From Chrysomallon squamiferum (Eukaryota; Animalia; Mollusca): a DNA stretch of 64,000 nt. Under the pieces are notes generated by a model. That model had not been told where the DNA came from. It saw nothing but the letters and a program-made list of their open reading frames with translations, and ran no database searches. Positions 3,501-6,490 of the stretch are shown one piece after another. Within the stretch, counting starts at the first letter, position 1. The number at the start of each line of letters is the position of its first letter. Location: contig CM022672.1 in NCBI GenBank assembly GCA_012295275.1, positions 15,748,001-15,812,000 of the forward strand. Direction: 5' to 3'. The translations under genes and the position numbers were made by a program.

Positions 3501-6490
3501 ATATATGATACTAGAAAATAACTCTGAAAGAAACAGAGACTGACAGAATTTGAGAAACAGGTTTAAGAAAAACAGTGAAAAACAAAAGAGATAAATGTTT
3601 AGAAAGATTTTAAAACAAGGAGGAATGATACAATTTAATTGATGATATTAAACTTAGAGAAAAAAAGCAGTGCACAAGGGAGGTTAGGCAGCAGTAAGAT
3701 TATATGTTAATGGTGTTGAACAACCAATGCCATCTTAAATCATGGTCTCTGAAAGGCAGTTGCCCTGGAAAACAACGGGTCTTGGGACCCACGCAGTCCA
3801 TGTATGGTGTGTGGATTGCTGATAATAACTCTGTCGTGGTTTTATTTGTAGAGAGTCCAGTTTGCTGTTCTGACCAGGGACTATAATTCTGTTAAGATGT
3901 AAGCAACATAAAATATTTACTGTAGAAGTCTCATGCCAGCTGTAGCTCCAAGGTAAACCGGAGTTTTCTTGTAATTCTTCAGTGGAATCCTTTGTTTTGC
4001 CTTGTCCAGACACTGAGCAATTACATCATGAACCAAGGAAAGGTTGTTGCTCAGGTCAGCCAGTCCAGGATCTGTTAAAGAGAAATATTTTATAACAAAC
4101 AGTCCTGCAGTGTTAGTTTAAGTAAACATTAATGTGTTTAATAGTATTTGTCTGAAATCACTTTTAGCTTTTGAATTTTACAATTACTCTTAACATGACC
4201 TATTGTAATATATATTGTAAGTGTGTTTTTCCTTTTCTTATACAAGATTCTTAAAAAATTCCAAATCCAAATAAAGAAAATAAAAAATAAAATAAAAGTC
4301 AAATGACAAAGTAAATTAACTTGATATTTATATCATTACTTCATGTATGTATTTGTTTAATTATGTTTATGTGTTTGTGCATACAGATGAATATCTGTGT
4401 AAATAGCTGTGAATCTGAATAGGTATGAACTGCAGCTTAAGTAAACAATTACTATTATGTAGCAATATCAAATTATTTTTGAGTGTGTGTATGTTTTCTA
4501 AATGTATGCAAGAGGCAGAGTAAGAAAAAATCATAAAAATGTTTCTGTGAACTCACATTTTGGTTTGACAACATCAGTAAACTGAGATGCAATGGCTGTA
4601 TTGTTTATTTTACTTCCAGTCCACTTGTAAATATACATAGAAGTATGAGATGAACCAGCATCAAACACAATCCCATACTGAAATGCAACAAAATATTAAA
4701 ATAGAACAAAACAAAATTATGAAAATAAATTCTATTAATAAAACACATTTTAAAAAATAAAATGAAATAGTGTTTGTAATGATGGGCCACAAGTAACTGA
4801 AATGTCATTATAGTGACTGCCTTGGTAGCCATGCTGGGTGCAGTTACTTGCCCCTATCGTTTCTCCTCTGTCAAGTATAAATGCAAAATCTGTCATAAAA
4901 TACATAATGCCAGTTTAGTTACTGATTTAAGTTTATGTTAACCTAAGTTGTATAGATCAACAGAAGTTACTTCAATAATTCCTGGCATTTTTTCAACTAT
5001 AACTCAAGGATTGATTACTGTAATTCAAAGTAGGCATAATGCAAATGATGATCATGTGATTTGAAAAAAAAAAAAAAACAGAACAAAGATAAGCAGTAAG
5101 TGTTTAATCTTGTAGGGTGTAGCCTAACTTCAAGGCCTGAATGAAATAAAATAAAAAATAAAATAAAAAACTCGAAATGAAAATCAAATGAAACAAAAGA
5201 AAACAACACAAAATGAAATTTTTGTTATAAAATAAAATAAACCAAAAAATTAAATCACAGAATTTTTAGCTCAGATAACATAAATAATTCTACTGATCAA
5301 TTATATTTAATTATGTTGTCATTTTTTTTTTTTAAATTATTAATTATAATTCACAATTTACCTATTTAAATTTTATTTATCTATTTATTATCTTCATGTT
5401 TGGAGTATTTCTTCTGAGAATACAAATGGACTGGGTTATCGACAAAACAAACCTGAAATATGTATTGCTGCTGTGATTCAATGACCACAACTGCAGCCAA
5501 CCCACATGCACCAATAAGAAATGAAATGGCCGCCAAAAACCACCACGTACTGAACTTACAACATGATGTCTTCACTGCAACGGCTGAATAATAACAATAA
5601 CAATAATAACACAATAATGATACAATAATAATAATAATCATAATAAAATGTAAACAGTAAAAACCAGTAAATAGTATTACAATAAAGAGAAGAACTACAA
5701 AATATAAATAATGACTAATAATTTAAAAAAAAAATGATACTAACATAATACTAATAATTATATTAATAGAAGTAAAAATACTAATAAAAAGTAATAAATA
5801 TAAATAATTCTAATTAAAAAATAATAATAATAATAATAGCAAAAATAATTTAATAATAACTGGAATAATAATAGAATTAATTAAAATAATAATAAATAAT
5901 AACATAATATTAATAATTATAATAATAGAAATAACAATAATAATAAAAGTAATAAATATAACAATACTAATTAAAAAAAAAATAACAAAAATAAATTTAA
6001 TAACAATAATACATCGTGTGTGTGTGTGTGGTGGATGTGTGTGTGTGTGTGTGTGTGTGTAAGGATATGTGTAATTATGTGTTTGTGTTTTTGAGTATAT
6101 GTATCTACATATAGATATGTATGTTTGTACATATTAGTGAACTTGTAACTGTATGTACATTCATGTGTATATTTGTATATGTATATTTGTCTGTACATGT
6201 ATAAATGTATGTTTGAGTGTGTGCATGTGTTTCTGAGTATCTTTACTTTCTTCCGTCCAGAGCAAAGTGCTTCCACTAATGACATCAGACTGACGAAGGC
6301 TTTTGGCTCTGTCCAGTATCTGTTTGTGTTTGTCTTGCAGTATGTGGTTTGGAGATGGAGGTATTCCTGCCTGGGAACTCAGTCTGTTCAGCAAACTCGC
6401 AACTGTTGAGTCAGCAGGCAGATGAATGTTTAAATACCGATCTGGGATTCGTGACGGCACAGCACATTCCACAGTTATTTCTATCTCCAT
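461..6490 (-). CDS. ENTPD1: Ectonucleoside triphosphate diphosphohydrolase (CD39/GDA1 family, cell-surface ENTPD1/2/3/8 type) with N-terminal ubiquitin-like domain; multi-exon, 3' end (ACR5, second TM) lies outside the window
   Basis: Joined exons 6490-6247, 5583-5453, 4677-4557, 4071-3921, 3262-3097, 2879-2649, 2245-2086 (or 2111), 1783-1637 and 580-461. They give a TM segment followed by ACR1 (FDAGSSHT), ACR2 (GATAGMRLL), ACR3 (ISGSEEG..WITSNY), ACR4 (DLGGASAQ), [11 protein letters not shown] and C....[21 protein letters not shown]. All introns are GT-AG with matching phases except one junction (see findings). The paralog within ENTPD1/2/3/8 cannot be resolved. Confidence 0.93.
1637..1783 (-). 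CDS. NTPDase exon 8
   Basis: [55 protein letters not shown], donor GTGAGT; 49 codons. Confidence 0.92.
2086..2245 (-). CDS. NTPDase exon 7 (3' boundary uncertain: 2086 with a frameshift, or 2111 with a weak donor)
   Basis: [55 protein letters not shown]..., containing the conserved NPC..G and downstream Cys of NTPDases. Confidence 0.8.
2649..2879 (-). CDS. NTPDase exon 6 (ACR4)
   Basis: TTCCAG|SPPAK...[17 protein letters not shown]...[24 protein letters not shown], donor GTGAGC; 77 codons. Confidence 0.93.
3097..3262 (-). CDS. NTPDase exon 5 (ACR3)
   Basis: [61 protein letters not shown], donor GTACGT. Confidence 0.92.
3921..4071 (-). CDS. NTPDase exon 4 (ACR2)
   Basis: TAACAG|..[49 protein letters not shown], donor GTAAAT, phase 1 to 2. 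Confidence 0.93.
4557..4677 (-). CDS. NTPDase exon 3 (ACR1)
   Basis: [46 protein letters not shown], donor GTGAGT. Not in the ORF track; read by hand. Confidence 0.93.
5453..5583 (-). CDS. NTPDase exon 2: juxtamembrane Cys-Cys and N-terminal transmembrane helix
   Basis: TATTCAG|CC (phase 1) gives [44 protein letters not shown]; donor CAG|GTTTGT, phase 0. A second in-frame acceptor exists at 5574. Confidence 0.85.
6247..6490 (-). CDS. NTPDase coding exon 1: ubiquitin-like (beta-grasp) domain, 81 aa
   Basis: [81 protein letters not shown] aligns by eye to ubiquitin (TV/TI, GIPP, KQ.L, STL). Acceptor CAG at 6507-6505; donor A|GTAAAG at 6247/6246, phase 1. Confidence 0.8.

Follow-up and report, generated by a model that had tools for sequence, protein, structure and literature searches.

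How is a nucleotide-hydrolysing enzyme that works on the outer side of a membrane controlled from inside the cell, and could part of that control be encoded in the enzyme itself? The question is raised by a 64,000-nucleotide stretch of Chrysomallon squamiferum DNA (contig CM022672.1, positions 15,748,001 to 15,812,000; hereafter the window), in which a first-pass annotation proposed that an exon encoding a ubiquitin-like domain (Ubl) is joined to a gene for a CD39-type nucleoside triphosphate diphosphohydrolase (NTPDase). The predicted protein would have the order Ubl, cysteine-containing linker, first transmembrane segment (TM1) and apyrase ectodomain. RNA, the predicted fold and homologues all support this architecture, and the Ubl-CD39 fusion is real, expressed, ancient and apparently unstudied. 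The splice is shown by RNA, and the fusion is conserved across gastropods and bivalves.

Splicing of the Ubl exon to the TM1 exon

The window is AT-rich (GC 26%) and the Ubl-NTPDase gene is on the minus strand. The coding region starts at an ATG at 6490, downstream of an in-frame TAA (6499–6497), and the coding part of the Ubl exon consists of 81 codons plus 1 nt, followed by a GT donor after 6247. An intron of 663 nt lies between this donor and a phase-1 AG acceptor before 5583, and the TM exon (5583–5453; 131 nt) encodes two cysteines and one hydrophobic helix, and has no Met. The codon count, intron length, phases and missing Met are all as first described. The 6247–5583 junction, suggested as the critical check, is present in four of four RNA runs from one study, in which the sequence past 6247 continues with 30 letters identical to 5583–5554; these data are Logan contigs, not reads. 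Two of the contigs extend 1868 and 1586 nt beyond the 6247 donor, and in run X1 one contig, of low depth (2.7 vs 29), enters the 663-nt intron. The RNA joining the Ubl exon to TM1 rules out a separate small gene. Three short database open reading frames (ORFs P0002, P0006 and P0011) lose their likeness to the Ubl exon at one common residue, as expected for read-through into the intron.

The Ubl exon had been taken as the first exon, and this requires correction: upstream of it lies a non-coding exon that ends at 13103 and is joined to it by splicing at 6507 (three of the four runs) or 6504 (the remaining run). The loose ends of the contigs are placed at 13104–13127, and a GT donor follows 13103. 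On the other side, seven exons beyond the TM exon supply apyrase conserved regions (ACR) 1–4, with junctions drawn from splice signals and homologues. A tblastn search with the Gigantopelta protein ends near residue 505 of 613 within the window, and no second copy of the gene is present in the 64 kb. A long Ubl-less product formed by exon skipping was considered for this gene and rejected, there being no Met before TM1 and the first in-frame Met lying within ACR1.

A predicted ubiquitin fold in residues 1–81

Judged by sequence alone, the likeness to ubiquitin is weak. A phmmer search of the PDB with the Ubl gives E values of 0.03–0.05, the top four of the five matches being ubiquitin-fold proteins; Pfam YukD matches the window Ubl at E 1.8e-4, below the family cut-off, and the domain falls short of the cut-off of every other Pfam model as well. 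AlphaFold2 run on a 27-row alignment predicts a beta-beta-alpha-beta-beta order with a mean confidence score (pLDDT) of 91. Foldseek matches this model to ubiquitin, Hub1 and NEDD8 with a template-modelling score of ~0.8, and VIA matches it to Rad60 SLD2 with Z 13.2 and a root-mean-square deviation of 1.3 over 73 residues; TINCR, BAG1, ISG15 and ubiquitin are tied with Rad60 SLD2 within ~1 Z. The hhalign comparison of the Ubl to the ubiquitin fold gives 96%, and the ESM Atlas returns generic ubiquitin-clan neighbours only. The single-sequence AlphaFold2 model is poor (pLDDT 60, Z ~5), and the alignment-based model was used instead. Residues 1–81 are thus predicted with high confidence to be a beta-grasp domain, as the first-pass annotation had suspected, and the models assign it to no named beta-grasp subfamily. 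The Ubl constitutes a new ubiquitin-fold family or subfamily, absent from the Pfam models and mostly missed by annotation.

The closest structural company is that of the integral (type II) Ubls Rad60 SLD2, TINCR/TUBL, Hub1, BAG1 and YukD, which share the beta-grasp (Z 11–13, 14–22% identity) and likewise have no conjugation tail; the mollusc Ubl differs in being its own sequence family, in a longer conserved beta1-beta2 loop, and in its fusion to an ecto-enzyme. Membrane-anchored integral Ubls include HERPUD1, TMUB1, TECR and Dsc3.

The enzyme part is of the NTPDase1/2 type

ACR1–4 motifs are located at residues 131, 208, 251 and 288, and two exons match Pfam PF01150. ACR5 is present in 21 of 21 homologues, and a second transmembrane segment (TM2) in all except P0029 (20/21). 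Profile searching of the PDB yields NTPDase2 (E 2.5e-138) and NTPDase1 (E 2e-134) well ahead of NTPDase4 (E 1e-59), and the sequence places the enzyme with the CD39/NTPDase1-2 type, closer to NTPDase1/2 than to the intracellular NTPDase4, a placement made by profile search and not from a tree with vertebrate rows. By analogy with the family, the catalytic domain is predicted to be extracellular or luminal and to hydrolyse nucleoside tri- and diphosphates, and TM1 is predicted to have type II orientation, which would put the Ubl in the cytosol.

The protein resembles vertebrate NTPDase1, 2, 3 and 8 (PF01150) in ACR1–4, in TM1 before the ectodomain and in the TM2 of the homologues, and the window gene encodes 12 N-glycosylation sequons; juxtamembrane cysteines are shared with palmitoylated vertebrate CD39. 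Vertebrate cell-surface NTPDases have a short cytosolic N-terminal tail. In contrast, the window protein has ~94 residues ahead of TM1, and the 81-residue beta-grasp domain stands in place of the short tail. The Schistosoma enzyme SmATPDase1, a characterised lophotrochozoan ecto-apyrase, is similarly a two-TM surface apyrase (PMC3970803), but at 544 aa, with an ectodomain from S66, it cannot hold a Ubl because its N-terminus is too short; ubiquitin is unmentioned in that article.

Distribution of the fusion

A phmmer search of 1.84 billion representatives with the Ubl exon product gives 12 matches: seven polyubiquitin-like proteins, one repeat artefact, the three short ORFs of the Ubl exon, and a 610-aa Plakobranchus protein with the order Ubl-TM-CD39-TM. 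A word-based search with the same exon recovered no longer protein among 44 candidates, reflecting its low sensitivity, since phmmer and profile searches did find such proteins. The profile search identifies 21 proteins at E ≤1e-30 among 7984 candidates scored, comprising 15 gastropod rows (14 named species), two bivalves and four further transcripts; the gastropods belong to the heterobranchs, caenogastropods, vetigastropods, neomphalines and patellids. All 21 are full-length and align across the Ubl, linker and TM1 in a Ubl-TM-GDA1/CD39 layout. The profile is weighted to the Ubl, and molluscan NTPDases without one are thus uncounted; with this weighting, a threshold of 1e-30 and 7984 candidates, the lack of cephalopods, oysters and annelids among the 21 is no evidence of their lacking the fusion.

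Identity of the homologues to the window model ranges from 38 to 64% (e.g. Gigantopelta XP_041371002.1, Aplysia XP_005097515.1, Elysia chlorotica RUS72025.1 and Sinanodonta KAL3864539.1). The nearest is Gigantopelta aegis (64%), which is sister to the window protein in both the Ubl and the ectodomain trees. The two trees also agree on bivalve and sacoglossan groups, the exception being a long-branched Batillaria row (P0023 was left out). P0023 (Elysia chlorotica EGW08_020210) lies next to P0014, of which it is a duplicate; its Ubl is damaged, its ACR2 altered and the terminal YxxPhi missing.

Outside these records, a Ubl is found in three of 80 metagenome NTPDase loci kept, of at least 554 confirmed (44 of 64 parts scanned). 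Their Ubl scores are 51 bits (L001), 22 (L032) and 21 (L003), each above 500 of 500 shuffles, and eight Ubl-less N-termini score below zero or not at all. In L032 an intronless genomic Ubl-NTPDase gene lies beside an immunoglobulin-type gene whose best matches are Drosophila DIPs (E 3e-33, against 3e-17 for neurotrimin of vertebrates), which is suggestive, but not proof, of an arthropod source. The L032 contig (1–5985) is compact; its Ubl-NTPDase is very divergent, and it also contains an intronless 698-codon ORF that resembles a CocE/NonD hydrolase. A test for a single clade of all Ubl-bearing rows gives p-AU 0.2, with long branches, no vertebrate rows, and six of the 22 mollusc-type rows left out. 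The fusion is mollusc-wide, perhaps wider, and not a one-off of this genome.

The homologues from Gigantopelta, Aplysia, Elysia and Sinanodonta, which share the Ubl-TM-GDA1/CD39-TM layout, are named ENTPD1/2-like or hypothetical. UniRef carries the automatic name 'Ubiquitin-like domain-containing protein' for two of the 21, and Pfam YukD is precomputed on two others. A search for literature pairing NTPDase with ubiquitin-like terms, in which subscription journals were mostly uncovered and supplements unread, returned no description of the architecture; in PMC11080811 the two sets of terms co-occur without relation to each other, and among the matches listed the molluscan NTPDase literature has nothing on a Ubl-NTPDase. 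The earlier remark that the architecture is undescribed therefore stands for published studies but not for public protein records, a few of which are automatically labelled.

Conservation of the Ubl

Mean pairwise identity is 42% for the Ubl against 50% for the ectodomain, and among the 19 pairs with 58–78% ectodomain identity the Ubl is the more similar part in ten, as for Aplysia and Lymnaea (Ubl 77%, ectodomain 61%). Thirty-five Ubl positions are common to at least 14 of the 21 homologues, many of them polar and outside the hydrophobic core, and conservation of polar non-core positions between snail families is as high as 86%, above that of the catalytic domain. These comparisons point to strong constraint on the Ubl. 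The residues kept fall in a beta1-beta2 loop lengthened by five residues together with the start of beta2 (S9, L11, P12, E15, P16, Q17, G18 and R19), in helix 1 (R/K35, C38, R/K39 and E/D40), and on a re-coded sheet face (R52, H77, T79 and E81).

A putative role in docking, and its alternatives

We propose, with a probability of about one half, that the Ubl is a permanent cytosolic docking module, likely palmitoyl-anchored, which would bind a family-specific partner controlling localisation of the enzyme and, via TM1, its activity. The Ubl would stay attached to the enzyme, and palmitoylation of the linker cysteines (a Cys is present in the linker of 22 of 22 rows), as expected from the family, would hold it at the membrane. 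A partner would then bind a surface other than that used by ubiquitin, for which conservation nominates the longer beta1-beta2 loop and beta2 start and/or the re-coded sheet face. Once bound, the partner would, in concert with YxxPhi motifs at the C-terminus, fix the enzyme in place or direct its sorting, and it could adjust catalysis by way of TM1, as happens in vertebrate CD39. A terminal YxxPhi is present in 18 of the 21 homologues and a tandem pair in 15, the latter a difference from vertebrate NTPDases; prediction of a complex between the Gigantopelta Ubl (1–84) and C-tail (583–613) scores 0.00, which counts neither for nor against. CD39 needs both of its TM domains, is palmitoylated in its N-tail and binds RanBPM, according to a review (PMC6788384).

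Several observations weigh against this proposal. Both the partner and its binding are putative, and which Ubl residues are exposed is read from the matching positions of ubiquitin and not calculated on the model. The window Ubl retains 20 of the 35 family positions, with most of the conserved loop lost, and its identity to Gigantopelta is 48% where that of the ectodomain is 71%, suggesting that constraint may be relaxed in the Chrysomallon copy; the exon ORF P0002, in contrast, is identical to Gigantopelta at 59 of 81 residues. Exon 2245–2086 contains an in-frame TGA (2092–2090) and a 1-nt frame mismatch; comparison with the spacing in Gigantopelta and Aplysia is consistent with a single extra base, so that an assembly indel is the likely cause; a null allele and use of the weak donor at 2111 are possible alternatives. 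The terminal YxxPhi also occurs in four of six Ubl-less NTPDases checked and is missing from two of the three new Ubl-bearing loci (L003 and L032), indicating that the motif is not tied to the Ubl. Lastly, RefSeq annotates Ubl-less 516-aa isoforms in three Haliotis species (P0044, P0046 and P0048), with a start Met placed at the front of TM1, such that the Ubl may be dispensable in some isoforms; a Met is found at this place in six of 22 rows and is absent from the Chrysomallon copy.

A more far-reaching version, which we regard as doubtful, is that a single fusion event, dating from the protostome radiation or earlier (the fusion being present in molluscs, in L001 and L003 and in the arthropod-like L032), founded an unrecognised subfamily in which the Ubl acts as an inside-out switch of extracellular ATP clearance, turning it up or down when bound by a specific intracellular partner or small GTPase, with the Ubl-less isoforms as the constitutive form.

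An unlikely special case of docking is a sensor like the Ras-association and Ras-binding domains (RA/RBD) or SUMO, in which the beta2 edge and helix 1 would bind a Ras, Rap or Rab GTPase or a strand like a SUMO-interacting motif, linking signalling to surface levels of the ecto-ATPase. Basic residues are common at the relevant positions (R19 in 15, R/K35 in 19 and R/K39 in 16 of 22 rows), the best fold matches, which are tied, include Rad60 SLD2 and SUMO, and Pfam RA_2 matches one family member at E 0.0013. However, the equivalent of Raf Arg89 is Ala in 17 of 22 rows, and with the top fold matches lying within ~1 Z no RA/RBD family is singled out.

About as unlikely is a built-in ubiquitin mimic: the first-pass annotation envisaged that ATP hydrolysis could be coupled to ubiquitin receptors, endocytosis and ESCRT sorting, p97 or the proteasome, so that a Ubl binding ESCRT-0, epsins, Rpn10/Rpn13, UBA proteins or p97 would drive constitutive endocytosis or degradation. 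The predicted fold is near to that of ubiquitin, the terminal YxxPhi suggests endocytic traffic, and parts of the ubiquitin surface are retained, with Leu near the Leu8 position in 20, His at the His68 position in 15 and an aliphatic residue at the Ile36 position in 16 of 22 rows; L003 apparently has Leu at the Ile44 position. The remainder of the Leu8-Ile44-His68-Val70 patch of receptor-binding Ubls of the Rad23/Dsk2 type (patch as defined in PMC4822132) is not kept. Profile alignment to ubiquitin-like repeats sets L51 at Leu43 and residue 52 at Ile44, where the 22 rows have R in 14, Q in three, K in three, C in one and a gap in one. The Val70 position is T in 16 rows, and neither it nor the Ile44 position is aliphatic in any of the 22; the Arg72 position is E in 16, and the Leu71 and Leu73 positions are not kept. 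A UBX-type FPR loop is also not seen in the 22-row alignment. On present evidence a ubiquitin mimic is disfavoured, and the suggested coupling with it.

Two further explanations seem improbable to a similar degree. One is self-association, in which neighbouring Ubls pack and fix the oligomeric state that governs CD39-type catalysis; the Ubl, which has acidic as well as basic faces, is separated from TM1 by ~14 residues, and CD39 activity depends on TM domains (PMC6788384, PMC3970803), but the beta3-beta4 region lacks a PB1-type acidic motif. The other is an aid to folding or biogenesis, or a near-neutral relic, such that the Ubl only stabilises expression or enforces the orientation of TM1. 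The Chrysomallon copy and P0023, the E. chlorotica duplicate, have diverged fast, which, like the annotated Haliotis isoforms, would fit this explanation, whereas retention across gastropods and bivalves and the strength of polar non-core conservation do not. Very improbable is release of the Ubl by cleavage to serve as a free modifier or signal, or binding of a nucleotide or second messenger by the Ubl itself. In its favour there are the parallel with ubiquitin-fusion precursors and a weak match between the poor single-sequence model and the cytosolic domain of Csx23 (Z 4.8). Against it, Csx23 is outside the top 50 matches of the alignment-based model and, in keeping with the original observation that a C-terminal Gly-Gly is missing, no di-Gly is conserved in the 22 rows (a stray linker GG occurs in three, at differing places, and not in the window).

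Gene model and other features of the window

The exons of the Ubl-NTPDase gene are listed in Table 1. Its 5′ leader (13103–13195 and 6411–6507) contains an upstream ORF of 13–15 codons and a second of 42–43 codons that is out of frame, in weak context and overlaps the main ATG, and translational control is possible. A local duplicate of the Ubl-exon acceptor and first bases (6610–6685, minus strand; 88% identical) lies ~135 nt upstream, and its acceptor is unused in the contigs examined from the four runs.

Table 1. Exons of the Ubl-NTPDase gene, in order of transcription (window coordinates).
Feature	Coordinates	Strand	Remarks
Non-coding upstream exon	13103..13195	minus	5′ end approximate, from contig ends; short upstream ORFs
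Ubl exon	6247..6507	minus	14–17 nt 5′ untranslated region (tandem acceptors 6507/6504); ATG 6490; residues 1–81; phase-1 donor
Linker and TM1 exon	5453..5583	minus	C89, C90; TM1 ~residues 95–118 (RNA junction, hydropathy)
Ectodomain exon with ACR1	4557..4677	minus	Pfam GDA1_CD39 E 2.7e-9; junctions inferred
Ectodomain exon with ACR2	3921..4071	minus	Splice signals, homologues, motif
Ectodomain exon with ACR3	3097..3262	minus	Splice signals, homologues, motif
Ectodomain exon with ACR4	2649..2879	minus	Pfam GDA1_CD39 E 1e-17; motif
Ectodomain exon with in-frame TGA (2092–2090) and 1-nt phase mismatch at best donor	2086..2245	minus	Homologue spacing
Ectodomain exon	1637..1783	minus	Splice signals, homologues
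Last ectodomain exon within window	461..580	minus	ACR5, TM2 and C-tail past the left end of the window

The first intron contains a GC-richer stretch of 131 codons (10538–10930, minus strand) with no Pfam match, which reads like a fragment of a LINE/CR1-type retroelement. To the right, exons of one or more other genes are present on the plus strand (55211–63424), with two weak ARID pieces at 56354–56527 and 57599–57718 (E 0.002–0.003), and these look like an ARID5-type regulator. They include a 483-codon ORF (61299–62747, plus strand) with a PxDLS sequence, presumably a CtBP-type motif.

Implications

In nerves, immune cells and epithelia, signalling by extracellular ATP is brought to an end by CD39-type enzymes, and little is understood of how these are regulated from the cell interior. 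A domain that is folded, strongly conserved and predicted to lie in the cytosol would give direct access to such regulation. Tractable models with an orthologue include Aplysia, Lymnaea, Biomphalaria and Haliotis, and the abalone records list isoforms both with and without the Ubl.

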